From Bacteroidia bacterium (GTDB lineage Bacteria > Bacteroidota > Bacteroidia > J057 > JANRLA01): a stretch of 64,000 nt of DNA. A program made the position numbers and the translations under genes. Below are positions 5,897 through 27,846 of this stretch, in pieces; positions within the stretch are counted from its first letter, which is position 1, and each line of letters begins with the position of its first letter. The stretch covers positions 10,036 to 74,035 of the forward strand of contig JANRLA010000032.1 in NCBI GenBank assembly GCA_033763015.1, written 5' to 3'. The notes under the pieces were generated by a model. It was not told the origin of the DNA. It did no database searches and was given only the letters and a program-made list of their open reading frames with translations.

Positions 5897-6024
5897 GGGG
5901 CTGGGGCGTTAGGTGCTGTGCGCAACTGGTGGTGGGCGCAACTGCTGTTTATACACCCAACGGGGGTGCTAAGTTTCAGGGGCCTACGCCGATTTACCCA
6001 CCCAGGTGCTAGCTTGGGTGCGCT

Positions 6025-6423
6025 GTGCGCCTCGTTTACTTCATCCAGCTCCTGGCCCTTACCCTGGCCTTTCTCTACGGGTACTGGAAATACCTGACCC
6101 CGTGGCGGCTGGTCATTTCGGCGCTGGTACTGCAGTTGCTGTACGGTTTGGTGGTATTTCACCTGTACTACACCTGGGATGTGCTCTCGGTCTTCGATTT
6201 CAACCGGCTCGACAAAGAGACCTGGCTCATGGACCTCATCCTGTGGCTGGGCAAGCTCTTCGGGAACCGGCCCCGCATCCTGGTCGCCGACCACACCTGG
6301 TGGTGCACCATGTTTACCGGGGGCTTCTTGGTGAGCCTGAACACCATCTTGCTCGGGGGCCTGTTTGCCCGGGTGCTGCATGCCACCCGTGCCGACTACG
6401 CCCAGAGCAACCCGCAGGCATAA
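6025..6423 (+). CDS. hypothetical membrane protein
   Basis: 132 aa with a GTG start and several hydrophobic helices. It is divergent from the MarR gene. No family was recognised. Confidence 0.5.
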   Translation: MRLVYFIQLLALTLAFLYGYWKYLTPWRLVISALVLQLLYGLVVFHLYYTWDVLSVFDFNRLDKETWLMDLILWLGKLFGNRPRILVADHTWWCTMFTGGFLVSLNTILLGGLFARVLHATRADYAQSNPQA

Positions 6424-6451
6424 CCCCCCACTCCCCTACCTTTGGCCCGTG

Positions 6452-8575
6452 ATGGTACGCCGATTCTGCTTCGGCCTAGGGTTGCTGCTGTTGGCCACAC
6501 AGGCCCAGGCCCAGGGTCTTGACAAAGGCTTCGAGGCACTTGGCGTGTACAACTACTTCGAAGCCAAAGCCATTTTCGAAAAGCGGCTCGGCAAGGAGCC
6601 TGCCGGGGCAGGGTACGGCCTTTCAGTGCTGCATGCCCGGAGCGACAACCCCTTCTACGACATCGGCAACGCCTACCGGTATTGGCAACTGGCCGACAAG
6701 GCCTACCGCGGCCTCGACGAAAAGGAGGTGCTGCGCCTGAGCGCCCTCGGGGTAACCCCCCTGGCCATGGCCCAGCAAAAAGACCGCGTCGATTCGTTGG
6801 CCTACGCCGCAGCCCTGGCCGATGGCAGCTTTGCCGCATTCGTGGCTTTTGTCCGCGAGCACCCCACCGCGCGCCAAGTGCCTCAAGCCCTGGCCCGGCG
6901 CGACGAACTGGCCTGGGGCGCCACGCAGGCCGAAAACACCTACCAGGCCTACCGCACGTTCTACGAAACCTACCCCACCGCTACGCAGGCCGACGAAGCC
7001 CGCCGCCGCTACGCCCAGCGCCTGTTTGAAGCCGAGACCGGGGGCAGCAGTGAGCAGGCCTATGTGCAGTTCATTGCCAAAAACCCCAGCAGCCCCTACC
7101 GGCGGGCCGCCGAAGACAGCCTCTACGCCCGCGTTACGCAACCGGGCACCGTGGCAGCCCTGGCTCGGATGGTGCGCAGCTACCCCAAAAACCCCAATAC
7201 GCCTGCCGCCTGGGAGCGTTTGTACCAACTGGCGACTAGTGACGGGCGGCCCGAATCGTACCTGTTTTTCCTGGAGGACTTTCCTGACTACCCCGACAAG
7301 AACCGCGTCCGCCGCCACCTACAGGCCGCCTACACCACGCTGTACCCCATTCGGGTCGACAGCCTGTGGGGCTTCGTCGACTCTACAGGTGCACCGCAAG
7401 TAGAGCCGCAGTACAGTTGGGTAGACGACTACCACGAGAACTTTGCCCTCTACGAGGCAGGGGGCTACCTGGGCTACCTCAATAAGCAAGGTGTGGCCCA
7501 GATTCTGGCGCAATACGACGAAGCCGAGCCCTTTGCCGATGGCCTGGCCGTAGTATCGAAAGACGGGCGTTTCGGCCTCATCGACCCCTCGGGCCGCACG
7601 GTGCTGCCCATCCGGTACACGACCATCGGGCGGGTGAGCGAAGGGCTGATTGCCTTCCAGGAAGGGGGCAAGAGCGGCTTTGCCAACCGCCGGGGCGAGG
7701 TGGTTATTCCGGCGCAGTTTGCGCTCGTGGGCGCGTTTGCCGAAGGGGTTGCCTGGGCCCAAACCGACAGCGGTACCGTGGGGTTCATTGGGCCGCAGGG
7801 GCAGTGGCAAATACCCCCTGTCTACGACTGGGCCAGCGACATGGCCGGGGGCCTTGCGCGGGTGCGCGCGGGTGGTAAGCTCGGGGCCATTTCGAGCGCG
7901 GGCGATACCGTGATTGCCATTGAGTACGAGGTGCTCGATGCGTTCGTGGGCGGCTACGCCCAGGCCGTCAAGGGCGGCAAGGTGGGCTTCATCAACAGCA
8001 AGGGCCAAACGGTTATCCCCTTCAACTCGCCCTACGACCCCCTGGCGGCCCAACCCAACGTACTTACCCAGGGCCTGGCCCGGTTTCGGCTCAATGGCAA
8101 GCTGGGGCTCATAGACACCACCGGCCGGGTGGTAGTACCGGCGCGGTACGACGACCTGGGCTACCCCACCGAGGGCCGAATTGCGTACCAGCTAAAAGGA
8201 AAATGGGGGTTCCTCGATAGCCTGGGCAAACCTGTGGTGCCGGCGGTGTACCAGGCCGTAGGCCCGTTTGCCGAAGGGTTGGCGCGGGTACAAAAGGCCG
8301 GGAAGTGGGGCTTTGTAGACCCCGCCGGTGGGCTCAAAATCCCGTGCGTCTACGACAGCGCGGGCGACTTCCGGCACGGCCTAGCGCCCATCGCCCTGAA
8401 CGGGGGGCTGGGTTTTATCGACCGCGAGCAACTGCCCATCATCCCCGCCGAAATGGAACACCTCGAGGTGCTGCCCCAGGGCATCGTGCGGCTCCGGCGC
8501 AACGGCCGGGTGGCTTACTACCTCTTGCGCAAGCAGACCTACCTCTGGACCGAGGCCTACTTCCACGCCGACTAA
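6452..8575 (+). CDS. WG-repeat secreted protein with TPR-like N-terminal region
   Basis: ATG 6452 gives the signal peptide MVRRFCFGLGLLLLATQAQAQ. The C-terminal two thirds is a long array of units such as WGFVDSTGAPQVEPQY, FGLIDPSGRTVLPIRY, WGFLDSLGKPVVPAVY and WGFVDPAGGLKIPCVY. Confidence 0.85.
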   Translation: MVRRFCFGLGLLLLATQAQAQGLDKGFEALGVYNYFEAKAIFEKRLGKEPAGAGYGLSVLHARSDNPFYDIGNAYRYWQLADKAYRGLDEKEVLRLSALGVTPLAMAQQKDRVDSLAYAAALADGSFAAFVAFVREHPTARQVPQALARRDELAWGATQAENTYQAYRTFYETYPTATQADEARRRYAQRLFEAETGGSSEQAYVQFIAKNPSSPYRRAAEDSLYARVTQPGTVAALARMVRSYPKNPNTPAAWERLYQLATSDGRPESYLFFLEDFPDYPDKNRVRRHLQAAYTTLYPIRVDSLWGFVDSTGAPQVEPQYSWVDDYHENFALYEAGGYLGYLNKQGVAQILAQYDEAEPFADGLAVVSKDGRFGLIDPSGRTVLPIRYTTIGRVSEGLIAFQEGGKSGFANRRGEVVIPAQFALVGAFAEGVAWAQTDSGTVGFIGPQGQWQIPPVYDWASDMAGGLARVRAGGKLGAISSAGDTVIAIEYEVLDAFVGGYAQAVKGGKVGFINSKGQTVIPFNSPYDPLAAQPNVLTQGLARFRLNGKLGLIDTTGRVVVPARYDDLGYPTEGRIAYQLKGKWGFLDSLGKPVVPAVYQAVGPFAEGLARVQKAGKWGFVDPAGGLKIPCVYDSAGDFRHGLAPIALNGGLGFIDREQLPIIPAEMEHLEVLPQGIVRLRRNGRVAYYLLRKQTYLWTEAYFHAD

Positions 8576-17663: not shown

Positions 17664-20504
17664 ATGGACAAGTTCAGCTACCTCTCCAACGCCGACCCCA
17701 CCACGCTCGATAGCCTTTACCAGCAGTACCTGGCCGACCCCACCAGCGTAAGCCTCGACTGGGCCCGCTTCTTCGAGGGCTTCGACCTGGCCAGCGCCCG
17801 TTTCCCGCAAAAGCCTGGCGCCAACGGCAGCCACGCCACAGCTACGGCGGCCACGCGCGGGTACTCAGACCAGCACGTACAACAGGAAATCAGCGTCCTG
17901 AACCTCATTGCGGGCTACCGCACCCGGGGGCACCTCTTTGCTAACATCAACCCCATCCTGCCGCGCAAGGAGTACCAGCCACCGCTGGACCTGAGCCAGT
18001 TTGGCCTATCGGTCGAGGCGCTCGACACCGTGTTTCAGGCCGGCGAGGTGCTCGGCATGGGCCCTTCTACCCTGCGCCAGATCCTCGAGCACCTGGAAGA
18101 GACCTACTGCGGCAAGGTGGGCGTAGAGTACATGTACGCCCGCATCCCGGCCATCGTCAAGTGGTTCCAGGAGCGCATGGAGCCCACCCGCAACCGGCCC
18201 AACTACCCGAGCGAGAAGAAGTACCACATCCTGCGCAAACTGGGCCAGGCCAACACCTTCGAGGCCTTTCTGCACAAAAAGTTCGTGGGCCAGAAGCGCT
18301 TTTCGCTCGAAGGGGCCGAGGCCCTGATACCGGCGCTCGATGGCATCATCGAGCACGGGGCCCAGTTGGGCATCGAAGAGTTTGTCATCGGCATGGCCCA
18401 CCGGGGTCGGCTCAACGTGCTGACCAACATCATGCAGAAGGAATACGATGTGGTGTTCGGCGAGTTTGAGGGCAAAGGCGTGGCCGACGACGTGTTCGAC
18501 GGCGACGTGAAGTACCACATGGGCTTCTCCTCCGATGTGCGCCTGGCTTTCGGCGACCAGGTGAAGCACGTGCACCTGAGCCTGCAGCCCAACCCCAGCC
18601 ACCTCGAGGCCGTAAACCCCGTCGTGCTGGGCGCCGCCCGCGCCAAGATGGACCAGCTCTACGAGGGCGACCACAACCGCATTTGCCCCATCCTCATCCA
18701 TGGCGACGCCTCGGTGGCCGGGCAGGGCATTGGCTTTGAGCTTATCCAGATGAGCCGCCTGAGGGGCTACGAGGTGGGCGGGGCCGTACACATTGTGGTG
18801 AACAACCAGGTGGGCTTTACCACCGACGAGAAAGACGCCCGCAGCAGCACCTATTGTTCCGACGTGGCCAAGGTGACCCTCAGCCCGGTCTTTCACGTCA
18901 ACGGCGACGATGCCGAGGCGGTGGTGTATGTCACGCAACTGGCCATCGAATTCCGCCAGCGGTTCAACCGCGATGTGTTTATCGACATCGTCTGCTACCG
19001 CAAGTACGGCCACAACGAGGGCGACGAACCGCGCTTCACGCAGCCGCGCATGTACGTCGCCATCGCCAAGCACAAAGACCCCTTTGCCCTATTGGCCGAG
19101 CGCTACCTGGCCGAGAAGAGCCTCACGCAGGCCCAGCTCGATGCCCTGAACCAGCAGCTGGCCGACAACCTGGACAAAGAGCTGGAAGAAAGCAAAGCCC
19201 ACCAGGCCGATGCGCCCCTCAACGTTAAGCTGCAGCGCATCTGGGAAGGCATTGAGTTCTACAACGACCACCAGCTAGAGGCCGACCCCGACACGCGCGT
19301 CAAGCGCCCCGTGCTCGACCAGCTCGCCAAACAACTGGCCCACATCCCCGAGGGGTTCGAGCCCCACCGCAACATCCAGAAGCTCTTCGAGCAGCGCGGC
19401 GAGATGCTCAAGAACGACGCTGTCGATTGGGGCATGGCCGAACTCATGGCCTACGGCAGCCTGCTGCTGGAGGGCTACCCGGTGCGCATGACGGGCCAAG
19501 ATGTCGAGCGAGGCACCTTCAGCCACCGCCACGCCGTGATCACGGACCAGAACACGGGCATGAAGTACATCGCCCTGAACGGCCTGGCCGAGCCGCAGCC
19601 CCAGTTCATGATTCACAACTCGCTGCTCTCCGAGTTCGCCGTCATGGGCTTTGAGTACGGCTACGCCAGCGCCGCCCCCAAAACCCTCACGCTCTGGGAG
19701 GCCCAGTTCGGCGACTTCGTCAACGGCGCGCAGATCATCATCGACCAGTTCCTTTCGGCCTGCAAAACCAAATGGCAGCGCATGAACGGCCTGGTGCTGC
19801 TGTTGCCCCATGGCTACGAGGGCCAGGGCCCCGAGCACAGCTCGGCGCGCATGGAGCGGTTCTTGACGCTCTGCGCCGAGAACAACATGTTCGTGTGCAA
19901 CATCACCAACCCGGCCAACTTCTTCCACGCCCTCCGTCGGCAACTGCTCACGCCCTACCGGCGCCCGCTGGTGGTCTTTACGCCCAAGAGCCTGCTGCGT
20001 TTGCCGGCAGCGGTATCGAAGGCCGATGAGTTTACCAAAAACCGCTTTAGGCCGCTCATTGACAGCAAAACCGCCGACCCCAAGCAGGTGACGCGCATTG
20101 TGCTGTGCTCGGGTAAGATCTACTACGACCTCAAGGCCAACCAGTTGCACCATGCGGCCGCCAACGTGGCCCTCGTGCGCCTCGAGCAGCTCTACCCCCT
20201 GCCCACCCAGGCCATCCTAGACCTCCTGGCCAAGTACAAAAAGGCCAAAGAGGTGGTCTGGTGCCAGGAAGAGCCCGAAAACATGGGCCCCTGGCCGCTC
20301 ATTGCCCGCAAGATGCTGCCCCTGGTGCCGCACCTGCAGGTAGTGGCCCGCAAAGAGAGCGCCAGCCCGGCCACAGGCTCTATCAGCCAGCACACGCGCC
20401 AGCAGCACTACCTGGTACGCAAGGCCCTGAACCTGGCCCCCGACGCCGAGATCGCCTACGCCAACAACCTGCGCCCCCAAGACATTTTTGTGGACACCGA
20501 CTAG
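17664..20504 (+). CDS. sucA: 2-oxoglutarate dehydrogenase E1 component
   Basis: 946 aa. It begins MDKFSYLSNADPTTLDSLYQQYL, and has the ThDP region GMAHRGRLNVL and the DAS..GQG..E and transketolase-like motifs typical of SucA. Confidence 0.95.
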   Translation: MDKFSYLSNADPTTLDSLYQQYLADPTSVSLDWARFFEGFDLASARFPQKPGANGSHATATAATRGYSDQHVQQEISVLNLIAGYRTRGHLFANINPILPRKEYQPPLDLSQFGLSVEALDTVFQAGEVLGMGPSTLRQILEHLEETYCGKVGVEYMYARIPAIVKWFQERMEPTRNRPNYPSEKKYHILRKLGQANTFEAFLHKKFVGQKRFSLEGAEALIPALDGIIEHGAQLGIEEFVIGMAHRGRLNVLTNIMQKEYDVVFGEFEGKGVADDVFDGDVKYHMGFSSDVRLAFGDQVKHVHLSLQPNPSHLEAVNPVVLGAARAKMDQLYEGDHNRICPILIHGDASVAGQGIGFELIQMSRLRGYEVGGAVHIVVNNQVGFTTDEKDARSSTYCSDVAKVTLSPVFHVNGDDAEAVVYVTQLAIEFRQRFNRDVFIDIVCYRKYGHNEGDEPRFTQPRMYVAIAKHKDPFALLAERYLAEKSLTQAQLDALNQQLADNLDKELEESKAHQADAPLNVKLQRIWEGIEFYNDHQLEADPDTRVKRPVLDQLAKQLAHIPEGFEPHRNIQKLFEQRGEMLKNDAVDWGMAELMAYGSLLLEGYPVRMTGQDVERGTFSHRHAVITDQNTGMKYIALNGLAEPQPQFMIHNSLLSEFAVMGFEYGYASAAPKTLTLWEAQFGDFVNGAQIIIDQFLSACKTKWQRMNGLVLLLPHGYEGQGPEHSSARMERFLTLCAENNMFVCNITNPANFFHALRRQLLTPYRRPLVVFTPKSLLRLPAAVSKADEFTKNRFRPLIDSKTADPKQVTRIVLCSGKIYYDLKANQLHHAAANVALVRLEQLYPLPTQAILDLLAKYKKAKEVVWCQEEPENMGPWPLIARKMLPLVPHLQVVARKESASPATGSISQHTRQQHYLVRKALNLAPDAEIAYANNLRPQDIFVDTD

Positions 20505-20513
20505 CGCGGCAAG

Positions 20514-20879
20514 GTGAGGCGGATAGTTGATTTCTTCCGGAGAGCTGAGCGTTTTTCGCTTATAGCGTTTTGGTTACTGTTAGCTATATTTATTCTTCGC
20601 ATTTTGATCCTATTAGAAGCGACCCGTGAATCATTTGCCTCATTTTTTGAATGCATATTTGGCGAAACGGGTGCTGTTGTTGGCTCTTTAGTCTATGTTG
20701 GTGCAGTCATATTAACTGCTACAGGCGCTATACGATACCGGCGATCGCTTCGACGTCACGGGGACAGGCAAATTCATGCTTTTTTCATCAAAGCCAATGC
20801 CATTATTATTGTGGCTATTTATGTTGTGCCAATTTATCTATTGATACTTGCTCATCTAATCTATGGCTTGACCCGCTAA
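20514..20879 (+). CDS. small hypothetical membrane protein (paralogue 1)
   Basis: 121 aa with a GTG start, in an AT-rich islet. The N-terminus RRIVDFFRRAERFSLIAFWLL is shared with the next ORF. It has 3-4 hydrophobic helices. Confidence 0.45.
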   Translation: MRRIVDFFRRAERFSLIAFWLLLAIFILRILILLEATRESFASFFECIFGETGAVVGSLVYVGAVILTATGAIRYRRSLRRHGDRQIHAFFIKANAIIIVAIYVVPIYLLILAHLIYGLTR

Positions 20880-20893
20880 ACTCCAGGTTACTA

Positions 20894-21220
20894 GTGCCGA
20901 TTATTCGCTTTTTGCGGCGTGCCGAGGGCTTTTCCCTTGTCGCTTTTCTTACTGGAGTAGCCCCCTACCTGTACTTCATGGGCGTATGGCTACGGTTTAA
21001 GCTATCTGGGGTCAAAGAATCCCTTAGCCTGGGTAGAATAGTTGTAGCTTATTCCGCGGCCTACCCGGGACTTAGCTACCTATGGTTGTGCGCTTTGATC
21101 TGCTTGTTCGTTAGTCTCTGCCGGTATTTTTTAGTTCTGCGGAAAACGAAAGAGCGGGATATGCACTTTCACTTCGTCTGGCTAAGTGCCCTCTTGGTAG
21201 TTCTGTTCTTTTCTCTGTAG
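20894..21220 (+). CDS. small hypothetical membrane protein (paralogue 2)
   Basis: This is in the frame of ORF-track 20651..21220, with a proposed GTG start at 20894 giving VPIIRFLRRAEGFSLVAFL, parallel to paralogue 1. The start is uncertain. Confidence 0.4.
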   Translation: MPIIRFLRRAEGFSLVAFLTGVAPYLYFMGVWLRFKLSGVKESLSLGRIVVAYSAAYPGLSYLWLCALICLFVSLCRYFLVLRKTKERDMHFHFVWLSALLVVLFFSL

Positions 21221-21280
21221 CGTAATGGGCTAGCGCTCTCAGAGCAATACGTCATGCTGGCTGGCGCGCGTCGGCCGCCC

Positions 21281-21994
21281 CTACACCTCCACTTCCTGCA
21301 AGAGCCGCCGTTTGGCGATGGGCAGCAGGGTTTCTTGTCGCGGGAAGGCCAGCTCGCTCTCCAGCGCGTACGTGGCCGGGTTGGGTAGCTCGGGCTCGGT
21401 GGCAATGAGGGCCCGCTTCATCTGTTCGTAGCCTTGGGTTAGCGTAGCGCTGTAGTTGGTTACGTAGTGCACGGCAATGCCCTTGCGCTTCTCCTCGCCG
21501 CCGTAAAAACTGCTTACCCGGAAGCGGTAGGCCGAAACCGTGCGGTTGTTGCCAATGCGGATGAGCAGGTAGCCCTCTTGGGTGTAGAGCGGCACCACCC
21601 CAATGGGGTAGAGCTGCAGGTTTTGCTCGACGTAGTCGTAGATCTCGCGCCCCTTGAGCAGGTACGCCTCCAGCATAGGCAGGGCGTAGGCCACCACGGC
21701 GTCGAGCTCCTGCAGGATAGCGGGGTCGTCTTCGGCGCGGGCGTAGAGAAGGGCCAGGTTTTGTAGGTCTATGCCTACCAGGTGGCGGGCCAGCTTGTGG
21801 GCCAGCTGTTCTTTCTGGGCGGCAAAGCCCAGCAGGGTACGGTGGTGGCCAATCACCTCTGAGAGGTGAGGGTAGAGCTTGAGGGCCCGGTAGGCGTCGT
21901 CTACCTGTTTCAGGTAGGCCAGCAGCACGTAGCGCTTGTACTCCAGGTCAATGGTGCCTTCGGCGAACCAGTTGGGCGAGAGGCGTTCGGCCAT
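21281..21994 (-). CDS. hypothetical protein
   Basis: 237 aa from ATG 21994 (MAERLSPNWFAEGTIDLEYKRYVLLAYLKQV). The upstream extension to 22114 would overlap the kinase gene. No family was recognised. Confidence 0.6.
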   Translation of the reverse strand: MAERLSPNWFAEGTIDLEYKRYVLLAYLKQVDDAYRALKLYPHLSEVIGHHRTLLGFAAQKEQLAHKLARHLVGIDLQNLALLYARAEDDPAILQELDAVVAYALPMLEAYLLKGREIYDYVEQNLQLYPIGVVPLYTQEGYLLIRIGNNRTVSAYRFRVSSFYGGEEKRKGIAVHYVTNYSATLTQGYEQMKRALIATEPELPNPATYALESELAFPRQETLLPIAKRRLLQEVEV

Positions 21995-22082: not shown

Positions 22083-23978
22083 TTAGTGCGCCGTAATGGT
22101 GCCCACGATGCCACCCTCCATGGGGCTACTGGCCTTGAGCTCGCCCGTGTACTCGGGCAGCTCTACGGTGAAGGTGGTGTTGCCGGGCTGCGACTCGACA
22201 CGGATGCTGCCGCCGTGCTTCTCGACAATCTTGCGCACAATGTCGAGGCCCAGGCCCGTGCCCTCGCCCTTTTTCTTGGTCGTGAAGAAGGGCTCGAAGA
22301 TCTTCTCGAGGTGCTCGGCGGGGATGCCCACACCCGAATCGGTGACCGAAACCGCGACCCGGCCCGGGGCCAGCCGCCAGAGGTGGATGTGCATTTTACC
22401 CTCGGCGTTCATGGCCTGGGCAGCGTTGTTCACCAGGTTGGTCCACACCTGCACCAGCTCATCGGCCACGCCCAGCACGGGGCTCAGGCCCTCTTCGTAC
22501 TCTTTGGTCACCTCTACGCCGTACTTGAGCTTGTTGTGGTAGAGCGTAAGCACAGTTTCGAGGCTTTCGCGCAGGTTGACGGGCTCGGTTTTGTCGCCCG
22601 CGCTGTGGCTGTAGTTGCGCAGGCCCTTCACCATGCGGTCCATCTTCTTGGCCGCGAGCTGGATGTTGTCGATGCCTTGGCGTAGCTTGACAGCCGTAGA
22701 GACCATCTCGAAAATCTGGTCGCGTTGGGGGTGTTTCAAGAGCGGTACATACGCCTCGTAGCCTTCGATGAGGCCACCTTTGACCAGCGTTTTGGCCACG
22801 CCATCGGGGTCGGGTACGCCCATGGCCATGAGCTTCTCGCCAATCTCCTTCTTGAACTGGCGCTCCTCGCGGCTGCTGAAGGCCCGCGGCGAGCCCGACG
22901 ACTGCTCGACCAGACTCAGGTAACTGGCCTTCTCTTCAGGGCCCAGGCTGTTGAACAGCTCGGGGTACTCGTTGATGAGGAAGGGCACAATCTTGACCAT
23001 GCTCTCGCCCGCGGCCGTAATGGCCCCCAGGGGGGTGTTGAGCTCGTGGGCCACCCCGGCCACCAGGGTGCCCAGCGTGGCCATTTTGCCCTGCTGGATC
23101 AAGATTTCGTGGGTGGCTTCTGAGACACCCTCTTCGTTGGTGCTGTGCAGCTCGTTCTCGGCATAGACCTTTGCCGCGGGGGCTGTGTGGGCCTGGGCCA
23201 ACTCGGCTTTCAGTCGTTCTACTTCCGCCTGCAGGGCCTCGCTAGGGGCCGGTGCAGGCGCGCTGGGCTGGGGGGGGAGCACGGCCCGCTCCAGATCGGC
23301 CTGCAGTTGGGCATTAGCCTGGCGAAGCTGCTGAAGCTCCATGCGCAGCTGAAGTGTTTCGGCCGTCTCGCCCGCGGGTTGGCTGGGGGCTGCGGCGGCC
23401 TTCTCTACCTCGGCCTGCAGTTGGGTATTGGCCTGGCGCAGCTGCTGAAGCTCCATGCGCAGCTGTAGCGTCTCGGGTGTTTCGCCCGCAGGTTGGCTGG
23501 GGGCGGCAGCGGCCTTCTCAGCTTCGGCCTGCAGTTGGGCATTGGCCTTGCGCAGCTGCTGGAGCTCTAACCGCAGCTGCACTGTCTCGGGTGTTTCGCC
23601 CACCGGGGCAGCGGGGGCCGCTTCGGCAGCCGCCAACTTCGTCTCAAGTGCTTTTATCTGGCCCTGTAGCATGTCTATGACCTGCTTCTGCTGCTCGAGG
23701 GCGGCTTTTAGCTCGGTCGTATCACCGCTACGCTTGCGCAGCGCTTCCAGCTCGGCAGCGGTCGTCTTGAGTTCGAGGGCCTGGGTGTTGAACTGCGCCT
23801 GTAGGGCTGCCAGCTTGCTCGTCTCGCTCGCCTCCGAAGATTTGGGCTGCAGCGACTTAAGCCGCTGCGTGAGGGTGCGCACCTGGGTCTGGTACCCCCG
23901 GCTTTGGCGCTGCGCTACCAGCCAGAGTACCAAGAAAAGTGCAGCGGCTGCAAACGCCCCAAGCGCGATGGGTTCCAT
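22083..23978 (-). CDS. membrane-anchored coiled-coil sensor histidine kinase (no adjacent response regulator)
   Basis: ATG 23978 gives one TM helix (MEPIALGAFAAAALFLVLWLV). It continues with a long Q/A/E-rich coiled coil, the H-box GTLVAGVAHELNTPLGAI, the N-box WTNLVNNAAQAM and the G-boxes DSGVGIP / GTGLGLDIV. Confidence 0.9.
   Translation of the reverse strand: MEPIALGAFAAAALFLVLWLVAQRQSRGYQTQVRTLTQRLKSLQPKSSEASETSKLAALQAQFNTQALELKTTAAELEALRKRSGDTTELKAALEQQKQVIDMLQGQIKALETKLAAAEAAPAAPVGETPETVQLRLELQQLRKANAQLQAEAEKAAAAPSQPAGETPETLQLRMELQQLRQANTQLQAEVEKAAAAPSQPAGETAETLQLRMELQQLRQANAQLQADLERAVLPPQPSAPAPAPSEALQAEVERLKAELAQAHTAPAAKVYAENELHSTNEEGVSEATHEILIQQGKMATLGTLVAGVAHELNTPLGAITAAGESMVKIVPFLINEYPELFNSLGPEEKASYLSLVEQSSGSPRAFSSREERQFKKEIGEKLMAMGVPDPDGVAKTLVKGGLIEGYEAYVPLLKHPQRDQIFEMVSTAVKLRQGIDNIQLAAKKMDRMVKGLRNYSHSAGDKTEPVNLRESLETVLTLYHNKLKYGVEVTKEYEEGLSPVLGVADELVQVWTNLVNNAAQAMNAEGKMHIHLWRLAPGRVAVSVTDSGVGIPAEHLEKIFEPFFTTKKKGEGTGLGLDIVRKIVEKHGGSIRVESQPGNTTFTVELPEYTGELKASSPMEGGIVGTITAH
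23296..23637. repeat. about three tandem copies of a 114-bp (38-aa) unit inside the kinase coiled coil
   Basis: TCGGCCTGCAGTTGGG(C/T)ATT recurs at 23296, 23410 and 23524. The protein unit is GETPETLQLRMELQQLRQANTQLQAEVEKAAAAPSQPA. The third copy degenerates at its distal end. Confidence 0.85.
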
Positions 23979-24075
23979 AGTGGGGGGGAGGACGGTAAGA
24001 CGTATCGTTTGTGTCGGGAAGTTAGGCAGAAGCCCTAACCTATGTATGTCCAACAGGTTAGGGAAATGCGCGCCG

Positions 24076-25455
24076 CTAGATTAAAGCTTCTGCCGCCACC
24101 GTACCCGTCAGGGCGGCCCCTTCCATAAAGCCCTGCCAATCTTCGCTCAGGTGCTCGCCCGCAAAGCGCACCCGCCCATGGGGCTGCTGCAAGGCCGGTA
24201 GCACGCTGTACCACTGCCCGGTATCGTAGATGGCATAGGCCCCACGCACGTAGGGGTCGCTGCCCCAGTGGTAGGCCACGTTGTGCAGCAGGCGCGCAGG
24301 GGCCTGGGGCCAGGCCGGGGCCAGCGCCTGGGCCAGTTGGCGGCCCCGCTCGTCGGTGCCGAGCTTGCTCAGGAGGTATGCGCGGTCGCCCACGGCGTAG
24401 CTGGTGAGCACCCCTGCCGCGCCGGGCTGCCCCTGGGTGGTGTGGAAGTAAAAGTGCCCCAGGGTGTCGGTGAGCAGGGCGTAGTCGGCCTCCTGCCAAA
24501 ACCGCTCGCCGAATACCAACTGCGTCTTGCTGATGCGGCAGTACTGCAAGGCCGTAAGGGCCCGCTGGTGCGCCTCTTGTAGTACCGGCTGCCACCTGAG
24601 CGATAGCAGGGCTGCCGTGGGCAGGGCGCAGACCACGTGGCTGGCCCGGTGCACCTCGCCGCCAGCGGTGTGCACCGTCACCTGGCCGCCGGTTTGGTCG
24701 ATGGCCACGGCGGGGGTGCTCAGGTGCACGTTGGCGGGCCCAATGGCCTGGACCAGGGCCTCGACCAGGCGGCTGTTGCCGCCCACTACCTTGAAGTCCA
24801 TTTCGTTGTTCGGCGAGCTACTGGCGTATTCCCACAGGGCCGAGAGTGCCGATACCTGGCGGATGGTCTCGCCAAAATCGGTGCTATCGGCCAGCTCGCG
24901 TAGCTCTAGCTCGGGCTCTGAGATGCCCTGCTGCACCAGGAAGCGCCACCAGTCTTGCCCATCAAGCGCCTTGAGCTGGGCGGGGCTGTAGCGCTCCAGC
25001 GCCCCAAAAATGCCGCTCAACTTGGCTTGCCACGCGGGCTCGGCGGGCCAGTTTTCGGCCCGCGTGTAGGTGCCGCCCACCAGCACGTGGCTCTTGAAGG
25101 TGTGGGGTTGCAGCGCCAGGCCCAGCGCGGCGCAGGTGGTGCGTAGCAGCGTGTGCGAGGCGCCAATCCATTCGGCGCCCAGCTCTACCGTCAGGGGCTC
25201 ATCGGTGCCCAGGCTGTGGCTGAAGACACGCCCGCCGGGCCGGCTGCGGGCTTCGAGCACCGTAACAGGTATACCCGCCTGCGTCAGGCGGTAGGCGGCA
25301 AACAGGCCCGCCAGGCCCGCCCCTAGCACCACGACCCGCGTGGCCCGGCCCACATCGGCGCCCTGTGGGGCCGTAGGTGCCGCGAGCGTACCCAAGGGCA
25401 CCTGGGTGGCCACGGCACCTGCCACGGCCCGGCGCAAAAACTCGCGGCGGTTCAT
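24076..25455 (-). CDS. Tat-exported FAD-dependent amine oxidase (flavin monoamine oxidase family)
   Basis: It has the twin-arginine leader MNRREFLRRAVAGAVA, the dinucleotide-binding VVVLGAGLAGLFAAYRL..VLEARSRPGGRV, and the C-terminal FAGEHLS. The start is set at ATG 25455. Confidence 0.85.
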   Translation of the reverse strand: MNRREFLRRAVAGAVATQVPLGTLAAPTAPQGADVGRATRVVVLGAGLAGLFAAYRLTQAGIPVTVLEARSRPGGRVFSHSLGTDEPLTVELGAEWIGASHTLLRTTCAALGLALQPHTFKSHVLVGGTYTRAENWPAEPAWQAKLSGIFGALERYSPAQLKALDGQDWWRFLVQQGISEPELELRELADSTDFGETIRQVSALSALWEYASSSPNNEMDFKVVGGNSRLVEALVQAIGPANVHLSTPAVAIDQTGGQVTVHTAGGEVHRASHVVCALPTAALLSLRWQPVLQEAHQRALTALQYCRISKTQLVFGERFWQEADYALLTDTLGHFYFHTTQGQPGAAGVLTSYAVGDRAYLLSKLGTDERGRQLAQALAPAWPQAPARLLHNVAYHWGSDPYVRGAYAIYDTGQWYSVLPALQQPHGRVRFAGEHLSEDWQGFMEGAALTGTVAAEALI

Positions 25456-25456
25456 G

Positions 25457-26410
25457 CTAGCGCGCCGCCTGGGCAATAAAGATGACGTTGATGATGAGGA
25501 AGATGACCACCAGCACCGCCGCCGCCGTGCGGTCTATGCGCTTGTAGGTGGCGGTGCGCTCCTGCTTGGCGTAGTAGAGCGAAATGACGCTGACCACCAC
25601 GTTACTCAGCAGCATGGCAAACGTCAGGCCGTGGATGCGGTCGGAGAGTGAGGTCGAGATGATGTCGGGCAAGATCGAGTCGACCAGGTACTTGTTCCCC
25701 ACCGCCCCAAAGAGGCCCCCCACCGAGAGGCCAAAGCGCGGGTCGACTTCAGTCGGCGGCACAAAAAAGGCCAGCCAGCTAATGAAAAACGCCACGTAGA
25801 CCCCCGTAAACAGTTTAAAGAAAAGGCCCCAGCCGTTGCGGCGGATGGTGAGCTGGGCCGTGAGCTGGGGGTAGTCGCTGCCGCCCTCGGCCAGGGTGGG
25901 GTCGCCAAAGTTGGTGGCGTAGTGGTGCTGCGTCGTCGATACCTCGAAGCTCTCGATCTTCCAGCCATCGAGTTCGATTTCCTTGCTGTAGGTGCTGTTG
26001 GCGGTGTCGGCCAGGTAGACCACGCTTTCCAGGTCGTTCTGGGCATCTTCCACTTCGATGGTAAGCACCTGGCGGTCGAAGGGGAAGTAGTTCACGTCCC
26101 AGATCTGCTTCATCTCGGCACGCACTTCCTGGCTGGCCCAGTTGAGACCACCTTTTTTCTCGACCGATGCCTGGGCGAACTCAAAGGCCTTGGCGTTGGT
26201 CACCTCGGCGCTCTCGGCCGGGGCGATCGAATCGCTTCGGTACACAAACCAGAGCCAGAAATTGGTGTTATAGGCCCCACCCGATAGGTCCATGTCGTAC
26301 AACGACTTGAGCCATAGGCCCACTTTTACGGTATCGGGCGACTGGGCCAGGAGCACGACAGGGGCCCCACCCAGGGCCAGGAGCAACACAAGGCGGCGTA
26401 GCAAAGGCAT
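25457..26410 (-). CDS. prokaryotic pentameric ligand-gated ion channel (Cys-loop receptor family) homologue
   Basis: ATG 26410 gives the signal peptide MPLLRRLVLLLALGGAPVVLLAQ. The ectodomain carries YFPFDRQVLTIEVED (compare ELIC FPFDRQ). M1 is FFISWLAFFV, the M2-M3 segment is DSILPDIISTSLSDRIHG, and there is a C-terminal M4 helix. Confidence 0.75.
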   Translation of the reverse strand: MPLLRRLVLLLALGGAPVVLLAQSPDTVKVGLWLKSLYDMDLSGGAYNTNFWLWFVYRSDSIAPAESAEVTNAKAFEFAQASVEKKGGLNWASQEVRAEMKQIWDVNYFPFDRQVLTIEVEDAQNDLESVVYLADTANSTYSKEIELDGWKIESFEVSTTQHHYATNFGDPTLAEGGSDYPQLTAQLTIRRNGWGLFFKLFTGVYVAFFISWLAFFVPPTEVDPRFGLSVGGLFGAVGNKYLVDSILPDIISTSLSDRIHGLTFAMLLSNVVVSVISLYYAKQERTATYKRIDRTAAAVLVVIFLIINVIFIAQAAR

Positions 26411-26550: not shown

Positions 26551-27846
26551 ATGAAGCTGACCCGTCTGATTAGCTGCCTTTCGCTTGCCAGCCTGCTGGT
26601 GCCCGCAGCCGCCCAAACCGATGCCACCCAACTCTATGGCACCGTAACCACCGTAGAGGGTACCCGCTACACCGGGCCCATTCGCTGGGGCAAGGAAGAG
26701 GCCAGTTGGTTCGATCTCTTCAATGCCAACAAAGACGAGAACCCCTACAGCCGCTACCTCACCGAGCGCGGCAGCACGAATACTGCACCACCGGCCCCCG
26801 GTACCCCGCCCACGCCACCCACACCGCCCACACCGCCCCAGCGTGGCGAGGACAACTGGAGCTGGAATTGGAATTGGGGCGGCAAACGCGTGTACGCCTA
26901 CGGCTCTGGCTACGCGGTCACCCACCTGTTTGCCGTGCCCTTTGGCGCCATCTCGAAAGTGGTTGTCATGGGCCGCGAAGAGGCCGAAGTGACCCTGCGC
27001 GACGGTAAGCGGTACACCTTCGATGGGGGCAGCAACGACCTGGGTGCCACGCTGCAGGTGGTCGACCCCGAAATTGGTACCCTGTCGCTGGAATGGACCC
27101 GCGTCCGGAGCGTCGAGTTCGCCGACAGCCCCGCCCGCACCGAAAAGCGCTTCGGCAACGTACTCTACGGTACCGTCGAAACCTATGCCGGCTCGTTTAC
27201 GGGGTTCATCCAGTGGGACCACGACGAGCGCCTCGACACCGATAAACTCGATGGCGACACCCGCGACGGCGACGTGGCCATCGACTTCGGCAACATCAAA
27301 ACCATCGCCCGCGATGGGCTGGGGGTAAACGTAGTCCTGAAAAGCGGGCGCGAACTGCGCCTGACCGGCAGCAACGACGTAAACAGCGACAACCGGGGCA
27401 TCATCGTGTACAGCCCCGAGAACGGCGGGGTAGATATCCCCTGGCGCGAGTTCCGCACCGTCACCTTTGCCAGTGCCGCCCCCAACCGCCCCACGTTTGC
27501 CGACTACAAATCGGTGGGCGCGCTCACCGGCACAGTCAAAACCCTTGGCGGCACTACCTACACCGGCCGCCTGGTGTACGACCTGGACGAAGAAGCCGGT
27601 TACGAGCTCATCCAGGGCAAAGAGAAAGGGCTCGACTTCGAGCTGCCGCTCTTCCTCATCAAGCGTATCCTGCCCAAGGGCTCGTACGGAGCCACCGTCA
27701 TCCTGAAAAGTGGTACAAGCCTCTTTCTGGAGGGCACCCAAGACGTAAGCGCAGACCACGACGGGGTGCTCATTTTCAAAAACTCAACCGATACCCAGCC
27801 CCAGTACGTGCGCTGGAACGACATCGAAGAAATCGTCTTCGACTAG
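26551..27846 (+). CDS. secreted protein built of three related modules (unknown family)
   Basis: ATG 26551 gives the signal peptide MKLTRLISCLSLASLLVPAAAQ. The module heads are LYGTVTTVEGTRYTGPIRW, LYGTVETYAGSFTGFIQW and LTGTVKTLGGTTYTGRLVY. It also has the PT-rich linker PPAPGTPPTPPTPPTPP and NWSWNWNWGG. Confidence 0.7.
   Translation: MKLTRLISCLSLASLLVPAAAQTDATQLYGTVTTVEGTRYTGPIRWGKEEASWFDLFNANKDENPYSRYLTERGSTNTAPPAPGTPPTPPTPPTPPQRGEDNWSWNWNWGGKRVYAYGSGYAVTHLFAVPFGAISKVVVMGREEAEVTLRDGKRYTFDGGSNDLGATLQVVDPEIGTLSLEWTRVRSVEFADSPARTEKRFGNVLYGTVETYAGSFTGFIQWDHDERLDTDKLDGDTRDGDVAIDFGNIKTIARDGLGVNVVLKSGRELRLTGSNDVNSDNRGIIVYSPENGGVDIPWREFRTVTFASAAPNRPTFADYKSVGALTGTVKTLGGTTYTGRLVYDLDEEAGYELIQGKEKGLDFELPLFLIKRILPKGSYGATVILKSGTSLFLEGTQDVSADHDGVLIFKNSTDTQPQYVRWNDIEEIVFD

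Follow-up and report, generated by a model that had tools for sequence, protein, structure and literature searches.

We here describe, in a 64,000-nucleotide (nt) stretch of contig JANRLA010000032.1 of a Bacteroidia bacterium (the window in what follows), a pair of adjacent genes encoding a homologue of the ligand-gated ion channels of the pentameric kind (pLGICs) and, one nucleotide downstream on the same strand, a flavin amine oxidoreductase with a predicted twin-arginine translocation (Tat) leader. The pair has been kept or re-created, its order unchanged and its genes closely spaced, in two genomes that differ greatly. That a bacterial pLGIC has an accessory partner in its operon is a known kind of arrangement, and the pairing with an amine oxidase is apparently undescribed so far; the initial annotation of this DNA was aware of no such pairing, and a literature search, the coverage of which was incomplete, likewise found none. 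That channel and oxidase make up a functional module is plausible, and the notion rests on two lineages of two families that are almost always unpaired; a real unit of receptor and ligand-processing enzyme is in our view a tentative reading, possible but somewhat doubtful.

The channel gene occupies positions 25457..26410 of the minus strand, with its ATG at 26410 and a TAG stop at 25459..25457, and encodes 317 residues. Hydropathy and an AlphaFold2 model divide these into a Sec signal peptide (residues 1-23), a β-rich periplasmic domain (about 24-192) and four membrane helices, M1-M4 (194-316), with a very short loop between M3 and M4. By sequence, profile and predicted fold alike the protein is a true pLGIC homologue, the homology being far above chance, and the initial annotation, which had named it as such, was right in this respect. 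A phmmer search of the PDB matches residues 68-311 to the Gloeobacter violaceus channel GLIC (E 1e-10), a profile built from 33 family members finds GLIC at E 2e-17, and NCBIfam LGIC_1 and TIGR00860 match at E 6e-12 and 2e-11. Of the two Pfam Neur_chan profiles that had been suggested as a check, Neur_chan_LBD gave a match (E 7.8e-6) which at 25.9 bits just misses the gathering score of 26, and Neur_chan_memb gave no match to the channel in the Pfam search. The AlphaFold2 monomer (predicted local distance difference test, pLDDT, 89; predicted template modelling score, pTM, 0.78) comprises a signal helix, strands over residues 26-191 and helices at 194-216, 222-246, 255-282 and 286-316. A Foldseek search with this model against the PDB returned GLIC chains as the best match (template modelling (TM) score 0.77 over about 312 columns, E 1e-21), and GABA-A and glycine receptors followed lower in the list.

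The motifs point in the same direction. The peptides on which the identification had been based, YFPFDRQVLTIEVED, FFISWLAFFV and DSILPDIISTSLSDRIHG, all lie in the channel open reading frame (ORF), and when aligned to GLIC with HMMER they map to the Pro-loop (the Cys-loop equivalent), to M1 and to the M2-M3 loop, respectively. Within the Pro-loop, Y108-F-P-F-D-R-Q114 (26069..26089, minus strand), F109-P110-F111-D112 aligns with Y119-P120-F121-D122 of GLIC, where S-Q follows; P110 and F111 are invariant among the 33 family members, and F109, D112 and Q114 are conserved in at least 90%. R191 furthermore corresponds to the pre-M1 R192 of GLIC and is either invariant in the family or conserved in at least 90% of its members; in the superfamily, this arginine and the Pro-loop motif link ligand binding to gating. 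The same mapping identifies P248 as the M2-M3 proline. The pore helix M2 (residues 222-246; 25673..25747, minus strand), as placed by the mapping to GLIC, invariant columns and the modelled helix, is glycine-rich and amphipathic and is the best-conserved stretch of the channel family. It carries D223 (-2'), P (-1'), R225 (0'), G227 (2'), G231 (6'), F234 (9'), G238 (13'), Y241 (16') and D244 (19'), and the GLIC residues at the mapped positions are E222, T226, S230, I233, A237, I240 and E243. To judge from these alignments, a Phe at 9' within a glycine-rich and nearly invariant pore helix is unusual. With its acidic rings at -2' and 19' the pore is probably cation-selective, and the Asp-Pro-Arg start of M2 is neither a textbook cation nor a textbook anion motif. 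The channel thus resembles the proton-gated GLIC in its 317-residue length class, its whole-chain fold, its Pro-loop, its pre-M1 Arg, its M2-M3 Pro and its minimal M3-M4 loop, but the two are only about 21% identical, and G2', G6', F9', G13' and Y16' of M2 stand against T, S, I, A and I in GLIC.

The second gene (24076..25455, minus strand) encodes a 459-residue flavin adenine dinucleotide (FAD) amine oxidoreductase of the monoamine oxidase (MAO) type, with a twin-arginine leader in residues 1 to about 30, a GxGxxG motif at residues 45-50 and the residues K310, Y407 and F443 discussed below. Its translation begins MNRREFLRR, continues with the hydrophobic stretch AVAGAVATQVPLGTLAAP and contains VVVLGAGLAGL, as had been reported. 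The Pfam Amino_oxidase profile (PF01593) matches over all of its positions, 1-443 of 443, at E 1.7e-60. The best PDB match is 7EME (E 3e-43), a generic oxidoreductase without a functional name, on which a literature search brought up nothing relevant; MAO-B and MAO-A match at about 1e-30 (MAO-B E 1e-30 over residues 40-457), other full-length relatives in the PDB are L-amino-acid, cyclohexylamine, putrescine and nicotine oxidases, polyamine oxidase and LSD2, and NicA2 structures match at E about 1e-21. No curated equivalog model reaches its cut-off on this protein, and the models for carotenoid desaturase, HpnE and protoporphyrinogen oxidase reach no farther than the dinucleotide fold at the N terminus (residues about 40-80). 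An identity as phytoene desaturase or protoporphyrinogen oxidase was rejected because these models cover no more than this region, and the assignment as a flavin amine oxidase with a Tat leader, for which the initial annotation had seen a phytoene-desaturase-like activity as the alternative, is upheld by the full-length matches to amine oxidases. The NCBI annotation of a Bacteroidia metagenome-assembled genome (GCA_964440845.1, CAYTTT010000004.1) has the same 317-residue channel and 459-residue oxidase as products and names the former 'hypothetical protein' and the latter 'FAD-dependent oxidoreductase'.

Alignment to human MAO-B places its K296, the flavin-N5 Lys, at K310, and Y398 and Y435 of its aromatic cage at Y407 and F443. 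The oxidase shares these elements with MAO-B but lacks the covalent-FAD cysteine (C397 in MAO-B, Ala here) as well as a C-terminal membrane anchor, and is by prediction exported through the Tat pathway. All of the 120 oxidase homologues compared have K310, Y407, F443 and W96, and G45 is likewise invariant among them. Since the motif RRxF(L/I) is present in 118 of the 120, the whole orthologous group is apparently Tat-exported, and Pfam TAT_signal is precomputed on several of its members. The enzyme would accordingly be folded and loaded with FAD in the cytoplasm and then exported to the periplasm. Related enzymes of the superfamily such as NicA2 and Pnao also have an N-terminal twin-arginine leader and a periplasmic location, but they are dehydrogenases and depend on a cytochrome c encoded in their operon, and a superfamily study of 2025 found that Tat-leader enzymes with an adjacent cytochrome c gene are dehydrogenases and that those without one react fast with O2 (PMC12224317). 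No CxxCH motif occurs in any ORF of at least 60 residues between window positions 20000 and 31000, that is within 5 kb of the oxidase gene, and a cytochrome c-dependent dehydrogenase of the NicA2 type was rejected on this ground. By the same criterion the enzyme is most likely a periplasmic oxidase that uses O2, and it most likely converts an amine to an aldehyde or imine, ammonium and hydrogen peroxide (H2O2).

At the junction of the two genes (25453..25459, minus strand), a direct reading confirms the one-nucleotide distance that had been noted: the TAG of the channel (25459..25457) is followed by a single C (25456) and then by the ATG of the oxidase (25455..25453). With a spacing of 1 nt between stop and start, co-transcription is expected and, barring a promoter inside the channel gene, appears almost unavoidable; from the spacing alone we infer that the two genes may also be translationally coupled. 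A hairpin (24033..24063, minus strand) stands right after the oxidase stop, with the stem CCCUAACCU / AGGUUAGGG and without a U-tract. It is a near-perfect inverted repeat (CCCTAACCT ... AGGTTAGGG) with an RNA fold of -20.7 kcal/mol (z = -2.1), and no comparable significant fold was found in the equivalent place of the related locus L081 described below. The hairpin may mark the end of a two-gene transcript, and might act as a terminator or as a palindrome to which a protein binds. Scans for sigma-70 promoters and intrinsic terminators, which are ill-suited to Bacteroidota, gave nothing above shuffled expectation and did not call the hairpin, and Rfam has no match in the window. The G+C content of the channel and oxidase genes (0.60-0.68) matches that of the window (0.62), and transfer of the pair as a unit was rejected as being without signal.

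The pair is present in the window's own species (L083-L086) and in two further loci, of which L081 encodes a channel 73% and an oxidase 54% identical to those of the window, with a gap of 6 nt. Here the whole neighbourhood is syntenic, running from a symporter through two unknown genes, channel, oxidase, kinase and another unknown gene to 2-oxoglutarate dehydrogenase E1. The second locus, L087 (the same as L088 and L092; JAESFG010000173.1; JGI Ga0401337_00148), has the two genes in the same order and on the same strand with a gap of 19 nt, and its channel and oxidase are 49% and 46% identical to the window's. The L087 genome has 37% G+C, against 62% in the window, and the flanks are entirely different, with a convergent ribonucleotide reductase gene downstream of the pair. 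Since the adjacency recurs in so distant a genome, it is not unique to the one in which it was noticed; such uniqueness was among the findings by which the initial annotation would have considered its reading refuted.

The relationship between the two occurrences was approached with bootstrapped neighbour-joining trees of the 120 best matches of each protein. The window clade has a bootstrap value of 1.0 in both trees and groups with the L087 protein in none of 50 replicates for the channel and none of 40 for the oxidase; the nearest relatives of the L087 channel among the loci (54-58% identical) are unpaired, and so are those of its oxidase. Two separate juxtapositions of channel and oxidase are the simplest reading of these trees. 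The result is weak, since the window lineage forms a long branch that is roughly equidistant from all others, and a shared origin followed by many losses, which the trees do not firmly exclude, is the alternative. The pairing appears to be a lineage-restricted operon, formed at least twice, and a fixed module of neither family.

How rare it is became apparent from a survey of the neighbours of 80 species-representative genome loci and 67 metagenome loci encoding the channel family, supplemented with loci of the closest channel relatives and of oxidase homologues. Several results weigh against a functional unit. Of the other channel-family loci, 126 allowed a downstream gene to be called, and in none of them did tblastn or the oxidase hidden Markov model (HMM) find an oxidase beside the channel; no channel was found by HMM beside any of five distinct oxidase loci, among them the closest relatives of the window oxidase (P0127, P0128, P0134) and those of the L087 oxidase (P0208, P0218). 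Furthermore, in locus L082 a channel as much as 70% identical to that of the window is followed after 16 nt by a gene for a cyclic nucleoside monophosphate-binding (Crp-like) protein and not by an oxidase, although the contig is only 1.7 kb long and the absence covers the adjacent gene, not those farther downstream. No neighbour is shared across the channel family in the 80 genome and 67 metagenome loci, L081 by its full synteny reflects shared ancestry and does not count as independent evidence, and the possible shared origin with many losses would likewise reduce what the two lineages can tell. As regards the initial annotation, the identities of the genes are supported and the pair recurs in L087, but the pairing is exceptional and is missing beside the 70%-identical channel, and the amine-sensing or detoxifying module that it proposed is a tentative reading.

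The main rival reading is one of incidental co-transcription: in two lineages, rearrangement would have joined a chemosensory channel to a periplasmic amine oxidase, both of them stand-alone genes with unrelated ligands and roles, and to this we give a little less than an even chance. It is in good agreement with the overwhelmingly unpaired state and variable neighbours of both families and with the lack of an oxidase beside the L082 channel; both families are moreover common in the same Bacteroidota groups, and some occasional contact by chance is therefore to be expected. It is in poor agreement with the fact that the two genes have the same order and strand and stand close together (gaps of 1, 6 and 19 nt) in two genomes of very different composition and flanks, and with the fact that both products face the periplasm. 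The chance expectation for such recurrence is also low: one extra same-order adjacency among a few hundred loci would be expected about 0.02-0.1 times if one oxidase copy is present in about half of the genomes, a genome has about 4500 genes and about half of the downstream genes lie on the same strand, a rough and post hoc estimate that is suggestive only.

The channel family in itself is large, unannotated, mostly from Bacteroidota and usually stand-alone. A word-indexed search returned 652 relatives, and outside the window's own clade identity to the channel reaches about 50%; where a source is named it is for the most part one of the Saprospiraceae, Lewinellaceae, Cytophagales or other Bacteroidota, and the label is 'hypothetical protein'. 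An exhaustive profile search found 908 representatives of 50%-identity clusters at E<=1e-30, a number that rises to 2778 at E<=1e-10. Databases label the channel as a hypothetical protein because it scores below the trusted cut-offs of all curated models tried (Pfam Neur_chan_LBD, NCBIfam LGIC_1 and TIGR00860). The biggest clusters of neighbours (enolase, a large secreted protein, a membrane protein and a TetR-like gene) belong to one lineage each. In six loci (L070, L080, L127, L132, L133 and L135) the gene just upstream of the channel, in the same orientation and with gaps of 11-121 nt, encodes a class I/II aminotransferase; the channels of these loci are 37-41% identical to that of the window and 65-92% identical to one another. 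As these loci form one lineage, the adjacency is a single event, and it was rejected as independent support for a second link to amino-group metabolism. In the assembly that holds the L087 pair, two pLGIC paralogues lie in tandem on the same strand (L125:5950-7943, JAESFG010000069.1), the genes at 5950-6939 and 6936-7943 overlapping by 4 nt. Together with the paired channel this gives the assembly at least three members of the family, and the tandem paralogues could form a heteromeric bacterial pLGIC.

If channel and oxidase do work together, the two would share one small-molecule amine. Both products carry export signals, so that ligand-binding domain and enzyme are predicted to meet on the periplasmic side of the inner membrane, where the periplasmic domain of the channel would bind the amine and open a probably cation-selective pore, and the co-expressed oxidase would remove the amine and in so doing limit or end the activation of the channel, or detoxify the compound; in a reverse variant, it would be the product of the oxidase that gates the channel. 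The more specific form of this reading, an amine-gated periplasmic channel with a co-translated, Tat-exported enzyme of the MAO type as a unit of receptor and transmitter-clearing enzyme that was assembled more than once, we consider rather unlikely.

The nearest precedent is ELIC of Dickeya/Erwinia, which is opened by primary amines (GABA, that is γ-aminobutyric acid, as well as cysteamine, propylamine and putrescine) and the operon of which has a putative amino-acid decarboxylase gene, proposed to encode a ligand-processing enzyme (Zimmermann and Dutzler, PMC3119659). In both cases a bacterial pLGIC stands beside an enzyme of amine metabolism, but the enzyme of the ELIC operon is cytoplasmic and would make the amine, whereas the one described here would be exported and destroy an amine in the same compartment as the ligand-binding domain. 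Accessory periplasmic partners that handle small molecules are also found in the fusions and predicted operons of bacterial pLGICs with PBP-I/II, Cache, MCP-N and a Na+/H+ transporter, for which a role as chemoreceptors was proposed (Tasneem et al. 2005, PMC549065). These partners are however binding or sensor domains and not enzymes, and the word 'oxidase' does not occur in that paper (PMC549065).

A different way of coupling the two genes would be nitrogen scavenging, in which the oxidase deaminates amines or amino acids in the periplasm and a cation channel, gated by the substrate or by the product, passes ammonium or small organic cations across the inner membrane. The exported oxidase would release ammonium into the periplasm, and a pore for cations is suggested by the acidic rings at -2' and 19'. 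In algae, L-amino-acid oxidases of the periplasm serve to scavenge nitrogen. In L087, furthermore, the channel has a gene of the Asp/Glu/hydantoin-racemase family (L087:9180-9947, Pfam E 7e-17) 53 nt upstream in the same orientation, and this locus may be a three-gene amino-acid-related unit. Ammonium would however be expected to take the route of a dedicated Amt transporter, no Amt and no GlnB/GlnK genes adjoin the pair in the window or in the L087 locus, and the oxidase has an invariant Trp at what we take to be the position of the carboxylate-binding Arg of snake-venom L-amino-acid oxidase. All in all nitrogen scavenging seems improbable.

Downstream of the oxidase on the same strand lies the gene of a histidine kinase (22083..23978, minus strand) with an N-terminal membrane segment, a coiled coil with 38-residue repeats and the domains HisKA (Pfam E 3e-6) and HATPase_c (E 2.4e-30). 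By the NCBI start at 23978 it begins 97 nt after the oxidase, in keeping with the distance of about 100 bp given in the initial annotation, and an upstream TTG at 24053 would reduce this to 22 nt. Channel and oxidase might on this basis be thought to pass a signal, be it membrane potential, H2O2 or an aldehyde, to the kinase as the third member of a signalling unit. Its closeness on the same strand, its lack of a recognisable sensor domain, its retention in L081 and the failure to find a canonical terminator between oxidase and kinase would all fit this notion. The pair in L087 is however followed by the convergent ribonucleotide reductase gene and not by a kinase, L081, the only relative in which the kinase follows the pair, is fully syntenic and hence uninformative, and no response regulator is found nearby. 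The stable hairpin after the oxidase stop weakens the notion as well; membership of the kinase is doubtful and a three-gene signalling unit very improbable. The coiled coil is encoded by a 114-nt tandem repeat within the kinase gene (window positions 23296-23601; 2.7 copies, 87% identity), which specifies 38-residue units rich in Ala, Gln and Leu between membrane anchor and kinase core.

On the other side of the pair, and divergent from the channel, a gene at window positions 26554-27846 (plus strand) encodes a secreted protein of about 430 residues that matches no family significantly and contains a Pro/Thr-rich repeat (PPTPPTPPTPP). L081 retains the gene (L081:3523-4770), L082 lacks it at that position, and no homologue was detectable in L087. 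Farther away, between an unknown gene and that of 2-oxoglutarate dehydrogenase E1, the window has a patch of low G+C content (positions 20500-21500; 0.51 as compared to 0.62) that holds small, very hydrophobic ORFs (e.g. 20514-20879, plus strand) without a Pfam match.

GLIC and ELIC serve as the chief structural models of the neurotransmitter receptors of humans, yet little has been learned so far about what bacterial pLGICs bind in nature and do in the cell, and a co-transcribed enzyme that is exported to the compartment of the ligand-binding domain offers a cheap route to candidate ligands of the channel. Independently of the pairing, a large channel family (908 representatives at E<=1e-30) escapes current annotation because its scores fall slightly short of the curated cut-offs. 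As the pairing is rare, whatever is found for it could be carried over to this family as a whole to a limited extent only. If channel and oxidase nevertheless prove to be a unit of receptor and transmitter-clearing enzyme, they would indicate a natural ligand class for this large unannotated family of bacterial pLGICs, and would constitute a prokaryotic counterpart to the synaptic logic of a receptor and its degrading enzyme.

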